Shown here one piece after another: positions 368 through 50,887 of a stretch of DNA of 51,960 nucleotides (positions are counted from its first letter, which is position 1; every line of letters begins with the position of its first letter). The DNA is from a phage, in sequence record PZ000615.1. One strand, written 5' to 3'. Both the position numbers and the translations under genes were made by a program. The notes below the pieces were generated by a model, which was given only the letters and a program-made list of their open reading frames with translations, had not been told where the DNA came from and searched no databases.

Positions 368-412
368 AATAGCACTTTTTGTTAAACCAGTTGTCTTGTT
401 GAGTGTTATTAT
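368..412 (+). promoter_or_regulatory. Promoter-like cassette (palindromic element + -10-like hexamer)
   Basis: AATAGCACTTTTTGTTAAA 368-386; TATTAT 407-412, 22 nt after TTGTTA; upstream of helicase. Confidence 0.4.
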
Positions 413-2484: not shown

Positions 2485-2902
2485 TAAAGGCGATTACCTT
2501 GAATATTACGAGCGCGATCCAAGCGACACCAGAAAGGAGGAGGCGCACCAAAACGATAGCGCCTCTTGGGTTAAGTATCACTATCCGGAAATAATTTTCT
2601 GGCACACGGTCAACGAGGGTAAGAAAACAATCACCCAGGCAGACCGAGATCAGAGAGCTGGATTATTGAAGGGGGTGAGCGATAACGTATTCCTGAATGG
2701 AGTTTGTTACAAATTCCCGTTTGGAGCCATTGAGCTTAAGCGCGTCAATAAGAGCGGAAAGGGGGCAGCGTCACCAGTCAGCGATGAACAGAAAGCATAT
2801 CTCAAGCGCGTTCGTTCTGCTGGAGGTTTCGCCGCCGTCGCTTACGGGTTCGAACAGTTCAAGCTGGCTTTCCTTGATATGATAGGGAAACAGCACGAAT
2901 AG
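2426..2902 (+). CDS. VRR-NUC-like (PD-(D/E)xK) nuclease
   Basis: Track ORF; motif region FWHTVNEG...GVSDNVFL...GAIELKRVNKSGKG...EQKAYL resembles VRR-NUC; start uncertain (59-nt overlap with helicase). Confidence 0.5.
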   Translation: MGRVRTLLAAKTLEGKLITDKGDYLEYYERDPSDTRKEEAHQNDSASWVKYHYPEIIFWHTVNEGKKTITQADRDQRAGLLKGVSDNVFLNGVCYKFPFGAIELKRVNKSGKGAASPVSDEQKAYLKRVRSAGGFAAVAYGFEQFKLAFLDMIGKQHE

Positions 2903-2933
2903 CTAAAACAGCCGGAAGGGAATCCGGTATTAT
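2889..2933 (+). promoter_or_regulatory. Promoter-like cassette (variant element)
   Basis: CAGCACGAATAGCTAAA variant; hairpin CCGGAAGGGAATCCGG in spacer; TATTAT 2928-2933; upstream of dam. Confidence 0.35.
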
Positions 2934-2960
2934 CATCTCAACTTAAACAGGAGATTGATT

Positions 2961-3695
2961 ATGAAAGACGTTGCAGACAAAGATACTCACGACGCTTTTG
3001 TCTCATTTGAGCAGATTGAGCGCGAAAACTTCATTACCAACGCGCTTGTTCCTGGGTGCGGTCATTATTCAGCAGTCAAGCCGGATACTTACTACCAGGT
3101 AACTGGCAACCGCTACGCCGGAAGCAAGACACCTGACATCGTTCGTGACCTTTGGGCTACAGATCCAGAAGTGATTGAGTTCATGGAGAAGCGTTTCGGC
3201 AAGTATGATCTTGACGCGGCGGCAAGCGAACAAAACGCGGTCTGTGAAAAGTTCTACGACGAAAAGACCGACTGCCTGAAACGCTGGTGGGGCAAGAACA
3301 AACACGTTTGGCTTAACCCTCCGTACTCACATCCGGACGTCTTTGTCAAAAAGGCAATTGAGCAGATGGAGCATGGAAACCAGATTGACATGCTGCTGCC
3401 TGGTGACAACTCAACCGCATGGTTTGCCGAAGCGCGTCGGAATGCTGCTGAGATTATCTGGATCGAGGGAGATATTGAAACCGACATCGACGGAACTGAG
3501 TACGCCCGAACCGGACGACTTTCTTTCATCTCGGCTCTCACCGGAAAGCCAGTTGACGGAAACAACAAAGGCTCTGTGATCTTTATCATGCGAGAGCTGA
3601 AAGAAGGTGAGAAACAGAAAACTCACTACATCCCAATTACTGAAATTTGCCCAGGCGTGAGCCGCAAGCGTGCTAAAAAACGGAGCGTAAAATAA
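2961..3695 (+). CDS. dam: DNA N6-adenine methyltransferase (phage Dam type)
   Basis: Track ORF 2955..3695 starts at TTG; ATG at 2961 preceded by CAGGAG; catalytic motif WLNPPYSH (NPPY). Confidence 0.8.
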   Translation: MKDVADKDTHDAFVSFEQIERENFITNALVPGCGHYSAVKPDTYYQVTGNRYAGSKTPDIVRDLWATDPEVIEFMEKRFGKYDLDAAASEQNAVCEKFYDEKTDCLKRWWGKNKHVWLNPPYSHPDVFVKKAIEQMEHGNQIDMLLPGDNSTAWFAEARRNAAEIIWIEGDIETDIDGTEYARTGRLSFISALTGKPVDGNNKGSVIFIMRELKEGEKQKTHYIPITEICPGVSRKRAKKRSVK

Positions 3696-3928
3696 TGAGT
3701 AACTTCAACATTAAATACCTTACAAAGTCTGAAAAGTGGGCTTTATATCGCGCTCTGGTTGTTCTGGTTCTTATTGAGTCTGGATATAACAAAGACCATT
3801 TCGAGCTTGCTGATTCTCTTGATATGTCATTTGAGGAGATCGAAAGCATCCCTTATGACCAGTGGAAAGCCTTGATCATGAAAGACCTGCACGAGATGAT
3901 CGCAGATTGTCCGGAGGACTTTGGCTAA
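3695..3928 (+). CDS. Hypothetical protein
   Basis: Track ORF; TAATG start/stop overlap with dam. Confidence 0.5.
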   Translation: MSNFNIKYLTKSEKWALYRALVVLVLIESGYNKDHFELADSLDMSFEEIESIPYDQWKALIMKDLHEMIADCPEDFG

Positions 3929-4170
3929 TGGATATTCGCGAGGGTAGAGCGGCAGTATGGGAGCACGCAAAGGAATGCGGGATTGATGAAGATATAGCAC
4001 GAATTGCTAAACATTTCGACATCAAAGAGATTAATATCTTCACTCCTGGCGACGGCGGCAAGCTTACATATTTAAACGAACGCCCTCGCAAATTTCACAA
4101 GATAGCGGTTGCAGCGAAATCAGAAAAAACGCTTGACCAATACCTTAAAGAGGCAAGAGGCAAGAAATGA
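3928..4170 (+). CDS. Hypothetical protein (contains an internal copy of the promoter element)
   Basis: ATG at 3928 overlapping upstream stop (TAATG); track ORF 3862..4170 has an upstream non-ATG extension. Confidence 0.4.
   Translation: MDIREGRAAVWEHAKECGIDEDIARIAKHFDIKEINIFTPGDGGKLTYLNERPRKFHKIAVAAKSEKTLDQYLKEARGKK
3993..4037 (+). promoter_or_regulatory. Promoter-like cassette located inside a coding region
   Basis: TATAGCACGAATTGCTAAA then TAATAT at 4032-4037 with the same 22-nt spacing; inside ORF 3928..4170. Confidence 0.3.
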
Positions 4171-4421
4171 ATTTACCAGGCTTGAACTTTGACGAAACAG
4201 TTTACTCCCTTACGTGGAGAGGCAATATCAAGTTCCGTGAGATTCCATTCTCTGACTGGTTGCCTCCCGATCACAAGGATGTCATTTGTTACGGAAACGG
4301 TCAGGTATTTGAGGCTTATTTTTCTCCTCTATCTGGTTTCATGGTTCCGTCAGAAAACTCCACGGCTCATTGTGCTTTTGAGCCATGCGAGCTTGATTAC
4401 TGGTTGAAAGAGGTGGAGTAA
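4167..4421 (+). CDS. Hypothetical protein
   Basis: Track ORF; ATGA overlap with upstream gene. Confidence 0.5.
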   Translation: MNLPGLNFDETVYSLTWRGNIKFREIPFSDWLPPDHKDVICYGNGQVFEAYFSPLSGFMVPSENSTAHCAFEPCELDYWLKEVE

Positions 4422-4501
4422 TGCGATACGCTTTGATCCCGTTGGCGACACTAATTGCAGTTGTCGCACTCTTTCAAACCATCATGATTTACAACTAAGG
4501 A
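4421..4501 (+). CDS. Small hydrophobic peptide (26 aa), possible membrane protein
   Basis: ATG at 4421 overlapping upstream stop; translation MRYALIPLATLIAVVALFQTIMIYN; below track length cutoff. Confidence 0.3.
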
Positions 4502-4507
4502 ATCACC

Positions 4508-5644
4508 ATGCAACAGAAGATTACAGACGAACAATTGATCGCTGAGCGCGAATCCGGCAAAACTCAGCGTCAGATCGCTCAAGAGTACGGAATGAACATC
4601 CGAACCATCGAGCAACGTTGCGCACGCCTTGCAAAGAAAGGCCATGGTCACGGAAACAAGCACGTGTCTGTTCACGTTCCAGAAGGTTTCGCCGTAAAGG
4701 GAACCTCCACCATGATTCGCGGCAACGGCGAGGAGGTTGTTCGTTGGGTTAAGACCGACCAGGACAAAGAAAAAATGGCGGCAATGATGGACGCTGCTAT
4801 CGAGGCTTTCTGTGAGGAAATCCCACGAGCAACTCCACAAGAAAACAAGCTTGATGGAAAGTTTGTTGAGGGTCAGCTAGCTCTATATCCGGTATTTGAT
4901 CTGCACATTGGCGCTATGGCTCATAAGCACGAATGCGGTGAAAACTACTCAACCGACATCTCTGAGAAAGTCCTTAAGGACTTCTTTGAATACGCTGTTG
5001 AGATTTCACCTCATGCAGAAAAGGCCGTTCTTTTAATCGGCGGTGACTTCTTGCACTCTGACGGATTGGACGCGGTGACACCTGCTAGCGGTCACGTTCT
5101 GGATCAGGACTCGCGCTACGCTAAGCTTGTTCACGTAGCTATCCGATCTGTTCGTCGTGCTGTTTCGAAAATGCTGGATAAGCACAATGAAGTTGAGATC
5201 CAGATTATCGAAGGGAACCACGACCAGGCCGGAATGATCTGGCTGCGCGCTTCAATGGCGGCATTCTATGAAGATGAGCCGCGAGTGAATGTCGACGTTA
5301 GCCCTATGATCCTACACCGGACAAAGTGGGGTAAAACGCTATTGGGTTATACTCACGGTCACACCATGAAGAAAGCCGAAACCCGACTCTCAGCCATGGC
5401 GACAGATTTCCGTGAAGAGTTCGGAACAAGCAAGTACATTTACACGCACTCCGGACACTGGCACCATCAGACAATCACTGAGCACAGCTTAGGCATTGAC
5501 GAGGTTCACGGTCAGCTCGGAGCTAAGGACGCATACGCAGCTCGCGGCGGCTGGCGCTCATATCGTCAGGCGGCTGTCATTGTCTACTCCAAAGAGTTTG
5601 GCGAAATCGGGCGCTTTGTGTATCGCCCAGAAATGAGCAAGTAA
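4508..5644 (+). CDS. Calcineurin-like metallophosphoesterase with N-terminal HTH domain
   Basis: AAGGA SD before ATG 4508; motifs DLHIG (DxH), GGDFLHSDG (GDxxD), EGNHDQ (GNHD/E), HSGHWHH (GHxH); N-terminal QRQIAQEYGMNIRTIEQR HTH-like. Confidence 0.65.
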   Translation: MQQKITDEQLIAERESGKTQRQIAQEYGMNIRTIEQRCARLAKKGHGHGNKHVSVHVPEGFAVKGTSTMIRGNGEEVVRWVKTDQDKEKMAAMMDAAIEAFCEEIPRATPQENKLDGKFVEGQLALYPVFDLHIGAMAHKHECGENYSTDISEKVLKDFFEYAVEISPHAEKAVLLIGGDFLHSDGLDAVTPASGHVLDQDSRYAKLVHVAIRSVRRAVSKMLDKHNEVEIQIIEGNHDQAGMIWLRASMAAFYEDEPRVNVDVSPMILHRTKWGKTLLGYTHGHTMKKAETRLSAMATDFREEFGTSKYIYTHSGHWHHQTITEHSLGIDEVHGQLGAKDAYAARGGWRSYRQAAVIVYSKEFGEIGRFVYRPEMSK

Positions 5645-5691
5645 AACCAACAAGGGGCGGCTTTCGCCCCTAACCATAAGGAATCACACCG

Positions 5692-6207
5692 ATGATTTTT
5701 GAGCCTCACTATGAAGCGCCTCGCGTCGTTATTTTTGACTATGACGGAACGCTATCCGATGGAACTCACCGTTTGCACCTGCTGCCAACGAAAGACCAAC
5801 ACTTAACTGAAACATGGATTCCGTTTAATGCGGCCTGTGTTTATGATTCTCCAATCCGTGACACAATTGACGTGATGAATGCAATGTATGACGCAGGATT
5901 TTACGTCATCATTCTGACTGGTCGAAGTGATCACGTTTACGATGAGTCAGTAAAATGGCTGAAAGATAACGGCGCTCGTTACCATCATATGGAGATGCGA
6001 AAGCAGACCGACAATCGCAGAGACACAATCATCAAAGAGGAATACTTGCGCGGCATCGGCCTTGAAAACATCGTTGCAGCCTGGGACGACAGCCCGAACG
6101 TTATTGAGCATTTCCGCAACCTTGGGATTACCGTTTACCAGGTTTTCGATTACGGCGACAAGCTTCACAGTCGCACAGACTTAAAATCTCACGGAGTAGA
6201 AAAATAA
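5692..6207 (+). CDS. HAD-superfamily phosphatase (nucleotidase / polynucleotide 3'-phosphatase-like)
   Basis: N-terminal VVIFDYDGTLSDG (DxDGT motif); AAGGA SD. Confidence 0.6.
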   Translation: MIFEPHYEAPRVVIFDYDGTLSDGTHRLHLLPTKDQHLTETWIPFNAACVYDSPIRDTIDVMNAMYDAGFYVIILTGRSDHVYDESVKWLKDNGARYHHMEMRKQTDNRRDTIIKEEYLRGIGLENIVAAWDDSPNVIEHFRNLGITVYQVFDYGDKLHSRTDLKSHGVEK

Positions 6208-6788
6208 TGATTATCATTTTGAACGCACCAGCCGGAGCCGGAAAAGACACCATTCAGCAAGCAATTGCGGAGCTGCATGAGGTGTCACAGCTCAGCTTTA
6301 AAAAGCCTATGTTCGCTATGGCTAATGCCATGCTTGGCGATCTGGGGTTCATGGAATTCATGGACGCCTACAACAACCGCGAGCGAAAAGAAAAGCCACT
6401 TGAATTGCTTCACGGCTCAAGCCCTCGGCAGTTCATGATCTGGCTGAGTGAGAGCGTTATTAAACCTCACTTTGGCGACAAGCATTTTGGTAATCTGCTT
6501 TATGACGATTACATTATGCACGAGAATGACGGCTACTATGTCGGAGTTGTCAGCGACGGCGGGTTTGAGAGTGAGACGATTGCTCTGATCGATACTGGAG
6601 TTCCGGTTCGTCTTGTTCGACTTCATCGTGACGGCTACTCGTTTGCCGGAGACTCACGCGATTATGTCAGTCTGCCGCTCTACGCTAATAGCCCTACGTA
6701 TGACTACCAAGAGTTTGACGTTCAGTTAACTGAAGGTTTGCCAGTTGTGGCGGCGCTGGATATTCTCTCAATGGTCGGGTTGAAATAG
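6207..6788 (+). CDS. P-loop kinase, deoxynucleoside monophosphate kinase-like
   Basis: N-terminal IIILNAPAGAGKDT (GxxxxGKD/T P-loop as in phage dNMP kinases); TAATG coupling to upstream gene. Confidence 0.55.
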   Translation: MIIILNAPAGAGKDTIQQAIAELHEVSQLSFKKPMFAMANAMLGDLGFMEFMDAYNNRERKEKPLELLHGSSPRQFMIWLSESVIKPHFGDKHFGNLLYDDYIMHENDGYYVGVVSDGGFESETIALIDTGVPVRLVRLHRDGYSFAGDSRDYVSLPLYANSPTYDYQEFDVQLTEGLPVVAALDILSMVGLK

Positions 6789-6828
6789 CACGAATTGCTA
6801 AAACTTGCGCAACGGAATGCGCTATTAT
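6784..6828 (+). promoter_or_regulatory. Promoter-like cassette
   Basis: AATAGCACGAATTGCTAAA 6784-6802 (contains stop TAG of upstream gene); hairpin GCGCA-ACGGAA-TGCGC; TATTAT 6823-6828. Confidence 0.4.
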
Positions 6829-11236: not shown

Positions 11237-11281
11237 AATATAACAAAACCCGCCGGAGCGGGTTTATCAAAAAGTGCTATT
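11237..11281 (-). promoter_or_regulatory. Promoter-like cassette (minus orientation) overlapping terminator hairpin
   Basis: Minus strand AATAGCACTTTTTGATAAA, hairpin CCCGCTCCGGCGGG in spacer, TATATT 22 nt after TTGATA; upstream of small membrane ORF. Confidence 0.35.
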
Positions 11282-12789: not shown

Positions 12790-12836
12790 AGCTTAACGCC
12801 TTTCTCGTTATTTGTCTTTAGCAATTTGTGCTATTT
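12790..12836 (-). promoter_or_regulatory. Promoter element copy (minus orientation), weak -10
   Basis: Minus strand AATAGCACAAATTGCTAAA; hexamer at the expected position is TTAAGC (poor -10). Confidence 0.25.
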
Positions 12837-13707: not shown

Positions 13708-13752
13708 ACTATACCAAAGCCAGCCCCAGGAGTTTTAGCAATTCGTGCTATC
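13708..13752 (-). promoter_or_regulatory. Promoter-like cassette (minus orientation)
   Basis: Minus strand GATAGCACGAATTGCTAAA then TATAGT after 22 nt; upstream of secreted-protein gene. Confidence 0.4.
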
Positions 13753-14674: not shown

Positions 14675-14721
14675 GATTATGACCGATTCGAGACTGATTG
14701 GTTTAGCAAAAAGTGCTATTT
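14675..14721 (-). promoter_or_regulatory. Promoter-like cassette (minus orientation), first of leftward operon
   Basis: Minus strand AATAGCACTTTTTGCTAAA; CATAAT-like hexamer ~23 nt downstream; then CATCGAAACAGGAGG-ATG. Confidence 0.4.
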
Positions 14722-14902: not shown

Positions 14903-15445
14903 AAATTTCACGGAGGATTTGGGGAGGATTACGGAGGATTTCTCGGACTCAATTAGACGAACCTTTCAGAGCTACAGCTCATCTTTCTCCATCCCTGACT
15001 TGTCTGATATGCTACGGAGGGTTGCGGAGGATTACGGAGGATTTGCAATTCGGCTCTAGCCCTTGGTGCGCGTGGCTTGCGAGAGATTTACGCCGGAAAA
15101 TGTCGATTTCTCTATGGGGGCTGGTATAGATATACATAGAGAATGATGAGAAAGTGATGTGTCCATACGCTCACAGAAAAAATCCGATAACCCAATAATC
15201 AACATAATCCTCCGTAAACTATGAAACGATACCAATATACCAATAGAGAGATATAGTAATAATATATATAAAAACCCTTATATTACATATATATATAGTA
15301 TTATTATATACTATCTATACTGATTAGCTTGGTCATAAAATGAGCTGATTTTACGGAGGATGGTTCCGGCGCAATCCTCCGCGATTTCGATAAGTGTATG
15401 ATTTGCAAGGCTGCATTTACGGAGGGTATTTTCCGCAAAACACGT
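14903..15445. repeat. Iteron/AT-rich non-coding region A (candidate origin or regulatory hub)
   Basis: Tandem CGGAGGATT-like 10-11-bp repeats at 14911-14940 and 15015-15043, inverted/extra copies at 15206-15214, 15351-15362, 15371-15384, 15415-15428; AT-rich core 15225-15330; blocks shared with region B. Confidence 0.6.
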
Positions 15446-15458
15446 AAAAACAACCCAA

Positions 15459-15503
15459 AATAGCACTTTTTGCTAAAACCGCACCCCTGGCTTTTGCTAT
15501 TAT
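15459..15503 (+). promoter_or_regulatory. Promoter-like cassette, first of rightward array
   Basis: AATAGCACTTTTTGCTAAA 15459-15477; TATTAT 15498-15503; then CAACGAAACGAAAGG. Confidence 0.4.
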
Positions 15504-15539: not shown

Positions 15540-15830
15540 ATGAAACTGGTACGCGAATCTATCAAGCTTGGCACTGAGTACAACGGCAAATGGTGGTTCA
15601 CTATCGACGGCAACGACGCCGATGAGCTGGAAGCTGCTCAAGATCGCCTTTCATCAATGGAGACTGGATCTCACACTGTTAAGGCTGACGGCTCACTGAA
15701 AGCCGAGAGATGGAATGACTACTGTGACGGATGCCCTTGTTATGAAGATGGTCACTCTGCTGGATACTGGATTCCTGTCGACATGGTTCCAGCATTCAAG
15801 GCAGCATGGAAGATTGCAAAGAAAGCCTAA
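15540..15830 (+). CDS. Hypothetical protein (first gene of rightward early array)
   Basis: Track ORF; stop TAA abuts promoter element. Confidence 0.5.
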   Translation: MKLVRESIKLGTEYNGKWWFTIDGNDADELEAAQDRLSSMETGSHTVKADGSLKAERWNDYCDGCPCYEDGHSAGYWIPVDMVPAFKAAWKIAKKA

Positions 15831-15873
15831 TAGCACGAATTGCTAAACATGAGCCGGAGCAATCCGGCATAAT
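15829..15873 (+). promoter_or_regulatory. Promoter-like cassette
   Basis: AATAGCACGAATTGCTAAA; hairpin CCGGAGCAATCCGG; CATAAT 15868-15873. Confidence 0.4.
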
Positions 15874-15913
15874 AGCCCCATCGAAACGAAACAGTAGCTA
15901 CAAGGAAAAGAAA

Positions 15914-16069
15914 ATGGTACAGTTCAACATCATCGATACTGGCAACAAGGCACTCCTCGGGTTCTTCCGGTTCAAGTGTACTGGTGACGGTTTCACAGGT
16001 TACGGCAACATCGAGCTCGACGCATACCAGGAATGGGCTGAGGCTCGCTACATTGGAGATAAAGACTGA
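15914..16069 (+). CDS. Small hypothetical protein (51 aa)
   Basis: ATG at 15914 with AAGGAAAAG SD; track ORF 15806..16069 has an upstream extension that reads through the promoter element. Confidence 0.35.
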   Translation: MVQFNIIDTGNKALLGFFRFKCTGDGFTGYGNIELDAYQEWAEARYIGDKD

Positions 16070-16719: not shown

Positions 16720-17493
16720 ATGATGGCTCGCGTTGCATATCGCGGCGCGGGTGCATTCGTATCTTACGCTCACCCAAAGCAGATCAACATGACCCTTGAG
16801 GTTGCTGACGCTGTATGCATAGACAACGGCGCATTCTCAAAGAAGAATACCGGACGCGAGACGGATTGGAACGGGTTTTACAACGACTTTCTCCCAAGGT
16901 TTATCGACCATCCGAAACTCAGATTCTTTGTTATTCCGGATGACATAAGCGGAGACGACCAGGAGAACGACAGGCTTATCCGTGAGCTACCAGCGCACCT
17001 TAAACACAAAGGCGCTCCGGTATGGCACTTGCACGAGAGCATAGATCGCCTTGTTCACCTGGCTAACGAGTGGGAGTATGTATGTCTTGGCTCATCAGGA
17101 GAATACTACTCAATCCGATCCCCTAAGTGGCGAGCAAGGATGGATGAGGCATTCAACGCTCTGATCTCTCGCGGGTATTCTGCTAAGCTTCACGGCCTGA
17201 GGATGCTGGATGGTCGAGTTCTTGGCAATTATCCACTTGACCAGGCCGACTCAACCAATATCGCCATTAATGCGCCAAAGTGGTTATGCAAGCACGTGCA
17301 GATGACTATAGAGGCTTGCCGGATGCAGACGCATTTCAGTAAGTGGATTGACACAACAGATCCGAAGGTAGCTCTTGATAACCTGATCTCTGCCGGAGGA
17401 ACTAAAGAGCAAATGCTATCTCAGAGGTGCGCAATCCTGAAATCGTGCATTGAGTCAGTCAAACCTCCGCATAAGTCTGACTGGTTAAAATAG
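16720..17493 (+). CDS. TGT-fold protein, putative DpdA-like DNA transglycosylase (tentative)
   Basis: Track ORF 16672..17493; probable ATG 16720 after AGGGTGA; CIDNGAF resembles TGT DSGGFQ catalytic-Asp motif, YVCLGSSGEY resembles TGT YAVGGLAVGE; no zinc CxCxxC..H motif; adjacent to YhhQ-like gene. Confidence 0.4.
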   Translation: MMARVAYRGAGAFVSYAHPKQINMTLEVADAVCIDNGAFSKKNTGRETDWNGFYNDFLPRFIDHPKLRFFVIPDDISGDDQENDRLIRELPAHLKHKGAPVWHLHESIDRLVHLANEWEYVCLGSSGEYYSIRSPKWRARMDEAFNALISRGYSAKLHGLRMLDGRVLGNYPLDQADSTNIAINAPKWLCKHVQMTIEACRMQTHFSKWIDTTDPKVALDNLISAGGTKEQMLSQRCAILKSCIESVKPPHKSDWLK

Positions 17494-17533
17494 CACTTTT
17501 TGCTAAACGCCGCCCGACGTAATCGGGCATAAT
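17489..17533 (+). promoter_or_regulatory. Promoter-like cassette
   Basis: AATAGCACTTTTTGCTAAA; hairpin GCCCGACGTAATCGGGC; CATAAT 17528-17533. Confidence 0.4.
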
Positions 17534-18540: not shown

Positions 18541-18803
18541 AAAAGGTTGACAAGGGTTTATCTTTCTTTGCTGCGCTGGCTATAGTGGCGGCTATCATCG
18601 GCGGAGCTACAGTGTCCGAGGGCTACAGGATTCACAAGCTGATCAACAGTGTCGATGATGACGGGAAAGTTATCTGTGCTCTGACTGGTAACGAGCGAAC
18701 GCGAACCTATCCGGTGCTGGCTGGTAAGGTAACGGTAATGCAAACAACCCAGGAACAAGAGTATTATTGCGCTCCAGGTAAATTATACTGGGTTGCGAAA
18801 TAG
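18537..18803 (+). CDS. Small protein with N-terminal hydrophobic anchor/signal
   Basis: N-terminal LSFFAALAIVAAIIGGA; stop TAG inside promoter element. Confidence 0.45.
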   Translation: MKKVDKGLSFFAALAIVAAIIGGATVSEGYRIHKLINSVDDDGKVICALTGNERTRTYPVLAGKVTVMQTTQEQEYYCAPGKLYWVAK

Positions 18804-18843
18804 CACTTTTTGTTAAACATACCCGCCGTCGTGCGGGTATTAT
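18799..18843 (+). promoter_or_regulatory. Promoter-like cassette
   Basis: AATAGCACTTTTTGTTAAA; hairpin ACCCGCCGTCGTGCGGGT; TATTAT 18838-18843. Confidence 0.4.
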
Positions 18844-18871: not shown

Positions 18872-19105
18872 ATGAGTCATGTAATCAACCAGAGAGCTAT
18901 CAACGAAACTCACCGCCAGGTATTGTGGGCTATCTTCATCACTCGCGACGGTCAGCGCTATGCGGTGCGCGATCACGGGTTTAAATGCAACACATACGCC
19001 GAGTTAGACGGGCGTTGGGTTCACACCTCAAACCTGTCAAGCTTCTTGGTCTGGAATGGCGAGTTCCAAGGTCACGACGATATCAGCAGTCTGATCGAAG
19101 AATAG
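18872..19105 (+). CDS. Hypothetical protein
   Basis: Track ORF; AAGGAG SD; stop abuts promoter element. Confidence 0.5.
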   Translation: MSHVINQRAINETHRQVLWAIFITRDGQRYAVRDHGFKCNTYAELDGRWVHTSNLSSFLVWNGEFQGHDDISSLIEE

Positions 19106-19145
19106 CACGAATTGCTAAAACTCAATATTGGTGTTGCGCTATAGT
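19101..19145 (+). promoter_or_regulatory. Promoter-like cassette
   Basis: AATAGCACGAATTGCTAAA; TATAGT 19140-19145. Confidence 0.4.
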
Positions 19146-19175
19146 AACCCCAACAACCAATCAGAGGAAATACCG

Positions 19176-19490
19176 ATGCAAGTATTCATTAAACTCGTTG
19201 ACACCTACTACATGGCGGCTCAGGGTATGGCTGGCGTTATCGTTAAGGGTGAAACCTTAAGCTCACATCCGGATTACGCAGCAAAGTCAGGCGATTCCGT
19301 TTTTGTGGATATCCGCGATATGAGGCCTTTCATGCGTCCTGAGCATCACCATTTGTGTGACGACTGGCTCGATAAGCCGACGCGATACCTGTACACCATC
19401 CCAGGCGTGTATGACACAATGGCAACGTGCGAGGTCGTCGATAACCCGTTTGCGCACTGGAACCGCATCAAGAGCGGCGAACTACACTAA
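19176..19490 (+). CDS. Hypothetical protein
   Basis: ATG 19176 with GAGGAAA SD; track ORF 19128..19490 has an upstream extension. Confidence 0.45.
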   Translation: MQVFIKLVDTYYMAAQGMAGVIVKGETLSSHPDYAAKSGDSVFVDIRDMRPFMRPEHHHLCDDWLDKPTRYLYTIPGVYDTMATCEVVDNPFAHWNRIKSGELH

Positions 19491-19860: not shown

Positions 19861-20054
19861 CTCTAATCGAAACAACATCCGCATTTGGCGATCCAATTAA
19901 GTGCTACGCCGTTCAGGTTCGTGTTGCTCTGTTCTGGTGGGTGACGGTTGAAACGTGCGGTCATCTCTGCCAGGCTCGCTATTGGATCAACAAGAGCGGC
20001 GCTCCACATCGCAAAGAGCATATCATTAAAATCGTGAATAGCACGAAAAGCTAA
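19842..20054 (+). CDS. Hypothetical protein
   Basis: Track ORF; GGGGAG SD; 3' end reads into promoter element. Confidence 0.4.
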   Translation: MRKYRIALIETTSAFGDPIKCYAVQVRVALFWWVTVETCGHLCQARYWINKSGAPHRKEHIIKIVNSTKS

Positions 20055-20081
20055 AACATCCAGGTGTGGTCTTGCTATAGT
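20037..20081 (+). promoter_or_regulatory. Promoter-like cassette (variant element)
   Basis: AATAGCACGAAAAGCTAAA; TATAGT 20076-20081. Confidence 0.35.
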
Positions 20082-21154: not shown

Positions 21155-21198
21155 ATAGCACGAATTGCTAAAACGGGATGTTCGCTGACTGGTATATT
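21154..21198 (+). promoter_or_regulatory. Promoter-like cassette
   Basis: AATAGCACGAATTGCTAAA; TATATT 21193-21198. Confidence 0.4.
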
Positions 21199-21981: not shown

Positions 21982-22025
21982 ATAGCACTAATTGCTAATC
22001 TTGCGCGAGGTCATTTTGATATAGT
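21981..22025 (+). promoter_or_regulatory. Promoter-like cassette
   Basis: AATAGCACTAATTGCTAAT; hairpin GAGGTCA...TGACCTC spanning TATAGT 22020-22025. Confidence 0.4.
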
Positions 22026-22066: not shown

Positions 22067-22795
22067 ATGAAATTATCACTCAAAGCCATCGCAACCAATC
22101 GCATCAACGGATCTGTAACCGCGTTCAAGGTGTACCCAGTGTTAAATGACATGCTGGCAAGCCTGACGGATTCCGGATACTGGTTCATCAACGATAATGG
22201 TGAGAAGCAGTTCGCACACAAAGGAATCGTTCGCGACGGTTTTAGCGATCCGAAAAAGCAATACAGTTTTGACCTTTGTTTGCAGGTCAAAACGCTGGAG
22301 GAAACTATAAAGAGTCAGATTGACAAGTCTATCCGGTATTCTTTAAAGCCAGGTGGTGATTTATACGGGGCTTTGCGTGGAGGATTCCAAGGCGGCGGAT
22401 ATGTTCGGGATTTTTCATTCAGCAATGCATCTAACGCGGCGGCAAGTGCAGTCAAGGAAATGCAATCTGTTTGCGGAATCATTGGTGACGGCACTATCAA
22501 AGTCAAGATCGGTGACTTGCGCAGCGATGAGAAAAAGGAGCGTGACGCGGCTGTTGCTGAACTTGATAAGCATCTTCCAGCATACCGACGTTCTGATAAA
22601 GGGTTTGGTCTGGTTGAAAGCATTGAGTGGATCGGCAAGCTTAACGCGGCTCACAGTTCAGACTGTCAGAAATATGAGGGTATACTTGAAGATCTTATGG
22701 AGGCGTTCGACATTCGCACCATTGACGGACTCAAGCATTTTGCCTCGAACCTGAAGCGCTCGTCTGAAATTATCGACGCTGTTCGCAAGAAATAG
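22067..22795 (+). CDS. Hypothetical protein (242 aa)
   Basis: Track ORF; GAGGAATGAAC SD; stop TAG inside promoter element. Confidence 0.5.
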   Translation: MKLSLKAIATNRINGSVTAFKVYPVLNDMLASLTDSGYWFINDNGEKQFAHKGIVRDGFSDPKKQYSFDLCLQVKTLEETIKSQIDKSIRYSLKPGGDLYGALRGGFQGGGYVRDFSFSNASNAAASAVKEMQSVCGIIGDGTIKVKIGDLRSDEKKERDAAVAELDKHLPAYRRSDKGFGLVESIEWIGKLNAAHSSDCQKYEGILEDLMEAFDIRTIDGLKHFASNLKRSSEIIDAVRKK

Positions 22796-22835
22796 CACTA
22801 ATTGCTAAAACAATGCCGGAGCAATCCGGCATAAT
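22791..22835 (+). promoter_or_regulatory. Promoter-like cassette
   Basis: AATAGCACTAATTGCTAAA; hairpin CCGGAGCAATCCGG; CATAAT 22830-22835. Confidence 0.4.
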
Positions 22836-30926: not shown

Positions 30927-30954
30927 TTGACCGTTTAACAAAAAGTGCTATTAT
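30927..30954 (+). promoter_or_regulatory. Sigma70-like promoter (TTGACC-N16-TATTAT) with inverted palindromic element in spacer; upstream of capsid gene
   Basis: TTGACC 30927-30932, TATTAT 30949-30954; spacer contains TTTAACAAAAAGTGCTATT, the reverse complement of the early element. Confidence 0.45.
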
Positions 30955-45985: not shown

Positions 45986-46010
45986 TTTCTTACTCAATGG
46001 TACAATAGCG

Positions 46011-46029
46011 TTTAGCAAAAAGTGCTATT
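46011..46029 (+). promoter_or_regulatory. Inverted copy of palindromic element upstream of tail fibre gene
   Basis: TTTAGCAAAAAGTGCTATT (reverse complement of AATAGCACTTTTTGCTAAA) embedded in larger inverted repeat AATAGCG...GCTATT; between terminator 45964-45985 and tail fibre start. Confidence 0.3.
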
Positions 46030-50355: not shown

Positions 50356-50399
50356 AGTATACCCGATCTCATTCGTTGCGTTTAGCAAAAAGTGCTAAT
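50356..50399 (-). promoter_or_regulatory. Promoter-like cassette (minus orientation) upstream of exonuclease-erf-ssb operon
   Basis: Minus strand AATTAGCACTTTTTGCTAAA then TATACT ~21 nt downstream, then CAGGAG SD and ATG 50325. Confidence 0.4.
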
Positions 50400-50407
50400 T
50401 TTCACTC

Positions 50408-50860
50408 AACGGAGGATTGCGGAAATTTACGGAGGATTTGAAATCTGGCTCTAAGCCTTGCCACTACTGGATTTGTCGACAATCTACGCCGGAAAATGTC
50501 GATTTTCTCGCTCTATAGACACCAAAAACGCAGAAAACAGGCACAAAAAAAGATCCAATAACCCAATAATCAACATAATCCTCCGTAAATAAATAATATA
50601 CATCACATAGATAATGATAATATCTATATATATTAGACACTTACGTATATCTAAAGGTTGAAAATAGCTCATTATTTGAACGAAATTCGCGGAGGATTGA
50701 TCCGGCGTAAATTCCGCAAATTCTGTAAGTAACTGATTTTGTTGAATGCAATTGCGGAGGATTTTTTCGTGAATCTCCCGTAAATCGGCCTTGTTTAAGT
50801 TTGTTAAATCTTTTTCCGGAGGATTGCGGAGGATTGCGGAGGGTTTGCGGAGGATTTTTC
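50408..50860. repeat. Iteron/AT-rich non-coding region B, paralogous to region A
   Basis: CGGAGGATT copies at 50410-50440, 50575-50588 (inverted), 50688-50700, 50750-50765, four tandem copies 50816-50856; AT-rich core 50580-50660; shares TACGCCGGAAAATGTCGATTT and ATAACCCAATAATCAACATAATCCTCCGTAAA with region A. Confidence 0.6.
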
Positions 50861-50887
50861 CGGCGTAAAAAAACCCGCCGAAGCGGG

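Follow-up and report, generated by a model that had tools for sequence, protein, structure and literature searches.

A candidate class II marbox-type promoter read in frame within a conserved small gene of a T1-like phage

The window, a stretch of 51,960 nucleotides analyzed at its full length (sequence record PZ000615.1), represents a T1-like siphophage of the Drexlerviridae and is collinear with Enterobacter phage Ec_L1 (genus Eclunavirus), with ~86% nucleotide identity. The locus under study is gp05, a small gene in a unit that extends from the Dam gene to gp09. It carries a cassette consisting of a repeated element and a −10-like hexamer, and other cassettes of this type stand before the Dam gene and at the end of the unit. 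The PNK gene and gp09 follow gp07 as further distal genes. The features of the unit are as follows.

2890–2933, plus strand: closest cassette on the upstream side, preceding the Dam gene (ACAGCACGAATAGCTAAAA, spacer with hairpin, TATTAT)
3695–3928, plus strand: gp04 coding sequence (PHROG 2676), adjoining gp05 with zero intergenic gap
3928–4170, plus strand: gp05 coding sequence, 80 amino acids (PHROG 2817, match E = 1.1e-30), carrying the cassette
4167–4421, plus strand: gp06 coding sequence (PHROG 4596), first gene past the predicted start, preceded by a GAGG Shine–Dalgarno of its own
4508–5644, plus strand: gp07, DNA-repair exonuclease/phosphoesterase (PHROG 704, E = 2.5e-156), downstream in the operon of gp06
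6785–6828, plus strand: next downstream cassette, at the end of the Dam–gp09 unit (marbox, GCGC hairpin, TATTAT)

The initial annotation had offered two options for ORF 3928–4170: a genuine coding sequence with a dual-use internal promoter, or no real gene at all. The second option would make the cassette an ordinary intergenic promoter; nothing more than the unusual location speaks for it, and we regard it as almost certainly wrong. Besides the PHROG 2817 match, tblastn found homologues of gp05 in 848 phage records, from phages of Escherichia, Klebsiella, Shigella, Salmonella, Citrobacter and Enterobacter as well as from the unrelated, non-Drexlerviridae Erwinia phage PEp14. The gene is annotated in phages Ec_L1 and Phc, and the window's product is 98.8% identical in amino acids to that of Ec_L1. 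In the family-wide alignment, the N-terminal two-thirds are conserved (with G6, W11, G18, I23, I26, F30 and P53 invariant), and the balance of synonymous and nonsynonymous changes is that of a coding sequence under purifying selection on the protein. Both the start and the stop overlap the neighboring genes. The claim of a nongene is thus refuted, and that of a genuinely coding ORF stands. The function of the protein is less clear: an AlphaFold2 model based on a 6-sequence alignment was of low confidence (pLDDT 59.8), and the single Pfam match, DUF7334, was below threshold. With this model and this match as the only leads, we considered and set aside the idea of gp05 as an autoregulating DNA-binding protein.

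Within gp05, the sequence is as the initial annotation described it, with the 21-mer ATAGCACGAATTGCTAAACAT at 3994–4014 and TAATAT at 4032–4037. Read in frame, the 21-mer gives I-A-R-I-A-K-H, and the 15-nt core of the element, GCACGAATTGCTAAA, occupies 3997–4011. The cassette consists of the following parts.

3994–4012, plus strand: marbox-type element ATAGCACGAATTGCTAAAC, codons I23–K28 and the first base of H29
4012–4031, plus strand: spacer of 20 nt from core to hexamer, coding for HFDIKEI, hairpin absent
4032–4037, plus strand: −10-like hexamer TAATAT in codons Ile35-Asn36-Ile37, a 4/6 match with T−12, A−11, A−8 and T−7 present
4042–4046, plus strand: predicted transcription start window, placed by the −10 geometry 5–9 nt past the hexamer

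The element points in the direction of the gene but sits 67 nt into gp05, with the start codon at 4167 a further 173 nt away, and in this it departs from the family norm of an intergenic site ~76 nt upstream of a start codon. A search for a hidden overlapping ORF ~76 nt past the internal promoter showed that none exists. The cassette had been called full, and this holds for the perfect core and the canonical offset of the hexamer but not for the remaining parts: the G at −14 (found in 17 of the 20 copies in the window), the spacer hairpin, the tcA start context and the ACGAAAC leader are all absent. The predicted fold of the 4012–4031 spacer has an MFE of −1.4 kcal/mol (z = −1.0), compared with −7 to −12 kcal/mol in eight intergenic copies. 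The hexamer matches TATAAT at 4/6 positions vs. 5/6 in typical copies, TG is absent before it, and no purine preceded by C is found at the expected start. A TTGACA-like hexamer was not found 16–18 nt upstream of TAATAT, and a sigma-70 scan called no promoter there. Of the complete cassettes in the window, the intragenic one is the weakest, and the 4/6 hexamer together with the missing G−14, start context and leader counts against reading it as a promoter.

The element belongs to a repeat family. With up to three mismatches allowed, the 21-mer matches the window 8 times against 0.00 expected; the 16-mer core TAGCACNNNNTGYTAA gives 20 matches at up to one mismatch (0.40 expected), and the element followed by 20 nt and TAnnnT gives 9, including 3997–4037 (0.02 expected). 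The copies share the consensus aAATAGCAC(ttt/gaa/taa)TTGCTAAAc, then ~17 variable bases, a near-invariant G and tATaaT, the hexamer beginning 21 nt past the 16-mer in the aligned copies. The spacing called canonical in the initial annotation is indeed so, with a 5/6 hexamer exactly 20 nt past the 15-nt core in 16 other copies and at 19 nt in one. On the 3′ side of the hexamer, a conserved tcA (the A 7 nt past the hexamer) and the leader ACGAAAC(GAAA) are found in most intergenic copies, and eight intergenic copies have a GC-rich hairpin in the spacer. Beyond the cassettes of the Dam–gp09 unit, the copies are as follows.

369–387, plus strand: marbox copy, intergenic, before the helicase gene
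11262–11280, minus strand: marbox copy in the leftward early operon
12816–12834, minus strand: marbox copy with a weak −10 (TTAAGC)
13733–13751, minus strand: marbox copy
14701–14719, minus strand: marbox copy
15460–15478, plus strand: marbox copy
15830–15848, plus strand: marbox copy, in frame giving the IARIAKH extension of ORF 15806
17490–17508, plus strand: marbox copy
18800–18818, plus strand: marbox copy
19102–19120, plus strand: marbox copy inside the spurious ORF 18985
20038–20056, plus strand: marbox copy
21155–21173, plus strand: marbox copy
21982–22000, plus strand: marbox copy, TAAT subtype
22792–22810, plus strand: marbox copy, TAAT subtype
50380–50398, minus strand: marbox copy with TATACT at 19 nt
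30951 and 46028, minus strand: two late-region copies, antisense to genes, without a good −10

Since TAG and TAA close the other two forward frames, an element that lies in a reading frame always reads IARIAK. Two further ORFs of the window had been described as spuriously extended at the N terminus by the repeat, and both contain the peptide. This description holds for ORF 15806–16069, where LIARIAKH precedes the probable start ATG at 15911; ORF 18985–19260, with RIARIAK, is no extension but a wholly out-of-frame spurious ORF across an intergenic cassette.

The same repeat has been reported before. A 2024 re-annotation of phage TLS described a 21-nt direct repeat, aaATAGCACnnnTTGnTAAAA, in 21 copies, 18 of them intergenic, oriented along transcription and placed ~76 nt upstream of a start codon; the other 3 lay "wholly within genes" (PMC11447400). 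The authors also saw it in T1, Rtp and Rogue1, found only three sigma-70-like promoters in the TLS genome and left the role of the repeat between a stoperator, an enhancer-binding site and an UP element (PMC11447400). The subtypes (TTT, GAA and AAA/TAA), the orientation and the distance to the start codon are alike in the two phages, and the TLS repeat and the element here are the same. The intragenic sequence GATATAGCACGAATTGCTAAAC agrees with the core of aaATAGCACnnnTTGnTAAAA, and its sole departure, a T for A two bases before TAGCAC, arises because the Asp codon forces a T. The TLS study set the intragenic copies aside and tied the repeat neither to a hexamer at a fixed −10 position nor to a marbox (PMC11447400).

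The marbox is the asymmetric site to which the AraC-family activators MarA, SoxS, Rob and RamA bind as monomers, and the repeat fits it, a likeness that the initial annotation had not recognized. The pattern 5′-gcannwwntgnnaaa-3′ used by the Grainger laboratory (PMC12052159) has 17 zero-mismatch sites in the window against 0.81 expected, and all 17 are copies of the phage repeat. All 20 copies fit the older 19-nt form AYnGCACnnWnnRYYAAAY (PMC3709825) with at most one mismatch, and eight of them, including 3994–4012, fit it with none. The element at 3994–4012 shows no mismatch to AYNGCACNNWNNRYYAAAY or to GCANNWWNTGNNAAA, and its agreement with the asymmetric consensus extends to 12/12 specified positions, including A1, Y2 and the AAAY that lie outside the palindrome. 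Sites mapped in Salmonella by ChIP-seq, among them GCACAAATTGCTAAA, GCACTATTTGCTAAA, GCATTTTTTGCTAAA and GCACATTTTGTTAAA, are the same as, or near-identical to, variants of the phage repeat.

The arrangement around the element resembles class II marbox promoters, in which a forward box lies over the −35 position with its center near −41, followed by a canonical −10 and with no −35 hexamer (PMC12052159). The copy at 3994 is in the forward orientation, with GCAC upstream and AAA proximal to the −10, and its center falls at about −40/−41 if transcription starts 7–8 nt past the hexamer. We measured the gap between the 15-nt core and the −10 in four Escherichia coli K-12 promoters (micF, nfo, inaA and sodA) and found it to be 20 nt in all four, and the phage cassettes have the same gap, the intragenic one included, save for one copy with 19 nt. 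By these comparisons, the repeat agrees with a MarA/SoxS/Rob class II promoter in sequence, in orientation and in spacing, and we infer that a protein of this type would bind it. The host class II promoters (micF, nfo, inaA, sodA, fumC and lpxC P2) share the marbox, the forward orientation and the −35-less geometry. The phage sites differ in being nearer to the consensus (0–1 mismatches vs. 1–3 or more in micF, nfo, inaA and sodA), in belonging to a virulent phage and not to a stress regulon, and in their density of ~20 copies in 52 kb; many have a GC-rich spacer hairpin, the copy at 3994 lies inside a coding sequence, and the role of an activator is putative.

Other known signals were compared with the element and rejected. 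The sigma-54 (−24/−12) consensus is TGGCAC-N5-TTGCW, with GG and GC 10 bp apart; the repeat has AG in place of GG and a gap of 3 nt vs. 5 between CAC and TTGC, and a sigma-54 promoter would leave the conserved −10 hexamer 22 nt downstream without a role. Taking TTGCTA as a sigma-70 −35 hexamer gives a spacer of 22 nt in essentially all copies vs. the usual 16–18, and the sigma-70 scan was negative. An UP element, one of the ideas of the TLS paper, is unlikely because GCAC and GC are invariant in the repeat and UP elements are A/T-rich. The known sites for CRP, FNR, IHF, Fis and ArcA do not fit, and the T4 MotA box (TTTGCTTTA at −30) would be at the wrong position, with no such domain flagged by Pfam in the ORFs.

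The cassette might instead be read by a phage factor, or by some host protein outside the MarA/SoxS/Rob/RamA set, in which case the match to the marbox would be a resemblance; such a reader is itself compatible with an internal promoter. The core TAGCA-N5-TGCTA is near-palindromic, a form suited to a dimeric HTH protein; dozens of small uncharacterized proteins are encoded by the phage, and the N terminus of gp07 gives a weak match to an HTH. It is also biologically awkward for a virulent phage to depend on stress activators that are in short supply: unstressed cells contain little MarA and SoxS and keep most of their Rob sequestered, and it would be surprising for such a phage to lean on MarA/SoxS/Rob for nearly all of its early promoters. 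Against a different reader stand the match at all 12 specified asymmetric positions, some of them beyond the palindrome, the strictly forward orientation relative to the −10 and the spacing shared with the four host class II promoters. A phage-encoded activator of the AraC type was rejected, as the Pfam scan of the 61 nonstructural ORFs of the window detected no AraC-family domain, although remote homologues could escape such a scan. We consider a different reader unlikely, while granting it a real share of the probability. Motifs with TG or G−14, as in an extended −10, are frequent in the intergenic copies, so these may fire with little need of an activator.

To study the constraint on the intragenic cassette, we compared 94 homologous loci from annotated phage genomes and IMG/VR, representing 86 distinct gene sequences; four more loci, taken from assemblies, entered a separate comparison. 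DIA[RLKVM]I[AS]K is an ancestral peptide whose codons vary freely in most lineages. In the group of phage Henu8, for example, IARIAK is encoded by ATA GCC AGG ATA GCR AAA (GCG in Henu8 itself), with 3–4 mismatches to the element. Three protein clades (Eclunavirus, K50/PHB17-like and "IFDLADVSII") that are ~45–55% identical outside the motif contribute 19 distinct gene sequences with the codons ATA GCA CGA ATT GCT AAA. Synonymous diversity among these 19 is zero, in part by construction, as their selection by the 16-mer fixes some sites of the element; the sites left free by this selection, namely the third bases of CGA and AAA and the T at −12, are nevertheless the same in 19/19. The −12 T is the third base of an Ile or Val codon. 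Across the same 19 sequences, the amino acid is also invariant at 24 other codon columns, and the pairwise synonymous diversity at each of these is 0.11–0.71.

A similar contrast was seen among closer relatives. In seven Eclunavirus-like sequences, 3/25 sites of the marbox and hexamer are variable vs. 84/193 elsewhere (P = 0.0015, kinship ignored), and at third positions the numbers are 2/8 vs. 47/65 (P = 0.013, kinship ignored). Between the window and its most divergent relative (L098, 69% amino acid identity), the corresponding differences are 1/25 vs. 73/193 (P = 0.0002, kinship ignored). One locus (L100) has replaced Arg with Leu by a change from CGA to CTA, so that its element is no longer of the GAAT but of the TAAT subtype, which is just as canonical. 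This region is also the most conserved stretch of the gp05 protein, which accounts for part of the local conservation.

The marbox and the hexamer occur together. TAnnAT is found 20 nt downstream in 14/14 haplotypes with at most one mismatch to the 15-nt marbox core and is absent in 24/26 haplotypes with two or more mismatches, the two exceptions both being 2-mismatch haplotypes (naive Fisher test, P = 5e-9). The distribution of mismatches is patchy and strictly bimodal, with haplotypes at either 0–1 or at least 3 and just two intermediates with 2. In a crude tree built from columns outside the cassette, the positive lineages fall into at least three to four separate clades (Eclunavirus, K50/IFDLADV, the T1 clade and L067), with negative lineages interleaved. 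This is the pattern predicted by selection on a bipartite DNA signal, and the codon comparisons show that the cassette is under DNA-level constraint atop the protein constraint in several clades. Neither conservation of the peptide nor gene conversion by other copies, whose spacers are unrelated, would predict such a pattern. The initial annotation had named synonymous-site conservation across related phages as a way of checking its dual-use promoter; the frozen synonymous sites of the element and the co-occurrence of the −10-like hexamer in several clades give that proposal comparative support.

The same data bear on the idea that the intragenic element is a functionless accident, a peptide whose codons can by chance spell the repeat, with the identity kept by gene conversion or shared ancestry. 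The peptide is older than the element, and PEp14 and many other lineages have the former without the latter; with one open frame only, any in-frame copy must read IARIAK, and ~1/216 of the codon combinations for IARIAK yield the 16-mer. An accident is hard to reconcile, however, with a hexamer that covaries with the marbox although none of the other copies could have donated it or the spacer, or with codons that are frozen across clades in which other synonymous sites are near saturation. It would also not give a strictly bimodal distribution of mismatches, and we judge it improbable.

A further alternative is that the marbox is a protein-binding site without a promoter, where the bound protein would block or attenuate transcription that comes from the Dam promoter, or would serve in titration or an architectural role, with TAATAT being incidental. 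Stoperator and enhancer-site roles were floated by the TLS authors (PMC11447400), marbox-only copies without a good −10 exist in the window (the antisense copies at 30951 and 46028), and the intragenic hexamer is weak. We consider this rather unlikely, given that TAnnAT accompanies every near-consensus intragenic marbox at the class II offset in at least three to four clades and is gone where the marbox is gone, and that the synonymous T at −12 is invariant (19/19). Moreover, for every other copy in the direction of its gene, the distances to a −10 hexamer and to a start codon are fixed.

Weighing these alternatives, we hold it on balance probable, though far from assured, that 3994–4037 is a dual-use class II marbox-type internal promoter written in frame into the conserved gene gp05. 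A monomeric AraC-family activator would bind the marbox at about −41, in the usual place of the −35 hexamer; the candidates are the host proteins Rob, MarA and SoxS, or RamA in Enterobacter, and such host activators would be the simplest readers because no AraC-type protein is recognizable in the phage. Bound at 3994–4012, the activator would recruit sigma-70 RNA polymerase to TAATAT, and transcription would start at ~4044 and proceed through gp06, the exonuclease gene, the PNK gene and gp09, and would stop at the hairpin of the cassette that follows (6807–6822). The 5′ untranslated region would extend to 4166 and comprise the last ~125 nt of gp05, which would stay untranslated because this part of the gene has no in-frame Met. 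The hairpin-free spacer would suit read-through by polymerase coming from the Dam promoter (2890–2933), so that the gp05 transcript is completed.

In other Drexlerviridae (12 other loci by tblastn), the homologue of gp04, the small gene following Dam, lies 5′ of an intergenic cassette, and this cassette and a small ORF separate it from gp05. The segment is absent from Eclunavirus, and because no cassette is then left 5′ of gp05, the internal cassette is the only one of its type in the 3.9 kb from 2890 to 6785. Its solitary position between these two makes it plausible that the internal promoter boosts the distal genes of the operon, and in the Eclunavirus lineage this is probably its role. Compensation for a lost intergenic promoter was considered as a general account and is weakened by the other clades: most lineages with an intragenic cassette have also kept the intergenic one 310–350 nt upstream, and a sister lineage (L019) has neither.

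Taken across the family, the results suggest a wider picture, which we put forward tentatively as possible but somewhat short of probable: early transcription of Drexlerviridae would run from ~20 near-consensus class II marboxes per genome, hijacking MarA/SoxS/Rob/RamA and tying phage expression to host stress, and in several clades the promoter would in addition have entered a coding sequence by way of synonymous choice on a preadapted IARIAK. The role of the T1-like 21-nt repeats was left open in the 2024 TLS paper, and the marbox reading makes the question experimentally simple. In the literature searched, we found no transcript, start-site or binding data on T1-like phages, nor, in a search that did not extend to the original T1 genome paper, any link of marboxes to these phages. 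If the picture is true, a common family of enterobacterial phages that is widely used in therapy cocktails would be tied to the regulon of intrinsic antibiotic resistance, which includes tolC, the gene encoding the TLS receptor. The cassette also flags sites that would be destroyed by genome recoding or codon optimization of such phages.

The cassettes may be compared with the promoter-early stem-loop (PeSL) elements that Arbiol et al. reportedly described in 2010 as mobile regulatory cassettes of T4-type phages. These too combine a short repeated early promoter and a stem-loop and flank many small accessory ORFs of the early region, but they differ in sequence, are plain sigma-70 early promoters with no activator site and have the stem-loop outside the promoter. 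The copy in gp05 resembles the intragenic promoters of compact phage and bacterial genomes in that an in-frame promoter would be kept through synonymous codon choice. Unlike the usual intragenic promoters, the one predicted at 3994 is a member of a stereotyped multicopy family, and it is because of this membership that the constraint can be read from codon usage across clades. The intragenic copy would provide a clean natural example of dual coding, with the constraint visible in the codons themselves.

In a close relative (L100, Logan SRR3712204 contig, 1096-1111), a CGA to CTA change replaced Arg25 of gp05, the small conserved gene with an in-frame promoter cassette, by Leu. The same substitution kept the marbox, the asymmetric MarA/SoxS/Rob-type consensus element, and switched its subtype from GAAT to TAAT; the DNA signal stays canonical while the protein changes. 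Shigella phage Shfl1 of the T1 lineage (L010, 1489-1674) carries an intact gp05 homologue, unannotated in its GenBank record, with a one-mismatch marbox and TAGCAT. A distant PEp14-like homologue, 47% identical to gp05 (A3 alignment), was found on a 61.7-kb contig from a genome outside Drexlerviridae (L099, Logan SRR31572243). This homologue is without a marbox, and the genes around it include some that encode anti-defence domains of Acb2/Tad1-hairpin and Tad2-like type.

Among the cassettes of the window, 8 of 20 were found to contain a GC-rich hairpin (dG of -7 to -12 kcal/mol) in the 20-nt spacer that separates the marbox from the -10. On its 3' side the hairpin is immediately followed by the T-rich -10 region. 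The hairpins differ in sequence among the eight cassettes.

Cassettes with spacer hairpins
2908-2927
6807-6822
11243-11261, (-) strand
15848-15867
17508-17527
18818-18837
22810-22829

One of these hairpins was called by the terminator scan of the window, and in the related phage TLS a spacer hairpin of the same kind is terminator T62 by ARNold (PMC11447400). The hairpin cassettes look like combined terminator-promoter insulators that separate the small early genes.

For some small genes, the annotated or longest-ORF start lies within or 5' of the predicted transcription start of the cassette, with better downstream starts preceded by an AGGAG Shine-Dalgarno sequence.

Affected starts
Window 6817 (Ec_L1 gp10 start 6802), downstream start ATG 6868
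Window 15806, downstream start ATG 15911

As publicly annotated, Ec_L1 gp10 probably has a spurious N-terminal extension.

The late region has two perfect marboxes in antisense orientation to its genes, each pointing into the terminator hairpin of the preceding gene.

Antisense marboxes in the late region
30933-30951, (-) strand, short gap immediately 5' of the major capsid gene (31005); poor -10, TATTAG
46010-46028, (-) strand, short gap immediately 5' of the tail-fibre gene (46050); no -10

A similar (-)-strand copy in TLS, DR7, adjoins a terminator (PMC11447400). Both marboxes might act in late promoter repression or in the production of short antisense RNA.

Arrays of CGGAGGATT-like repeats were observed in two regions, at the divergent early-region boundary (14911-15436) and near the right end (50409-50870). 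Each contains one copy of a 42-nt repeat (15177-15218 and 50548-50589; 95% identical). The repeats may serve as iterons, as origin elements or as regulatory sites.

The DNA-repair exonuclease/phosphoesterase gp07 has a helix-turn-helix-like segment at its N-terminal end (4508-4650), fused to the nuclease domain; Pfam matches to the segment were all sub-threshold (HTH_24, E=0.004, as well as Sigma70_r4_2 and HTH_23).
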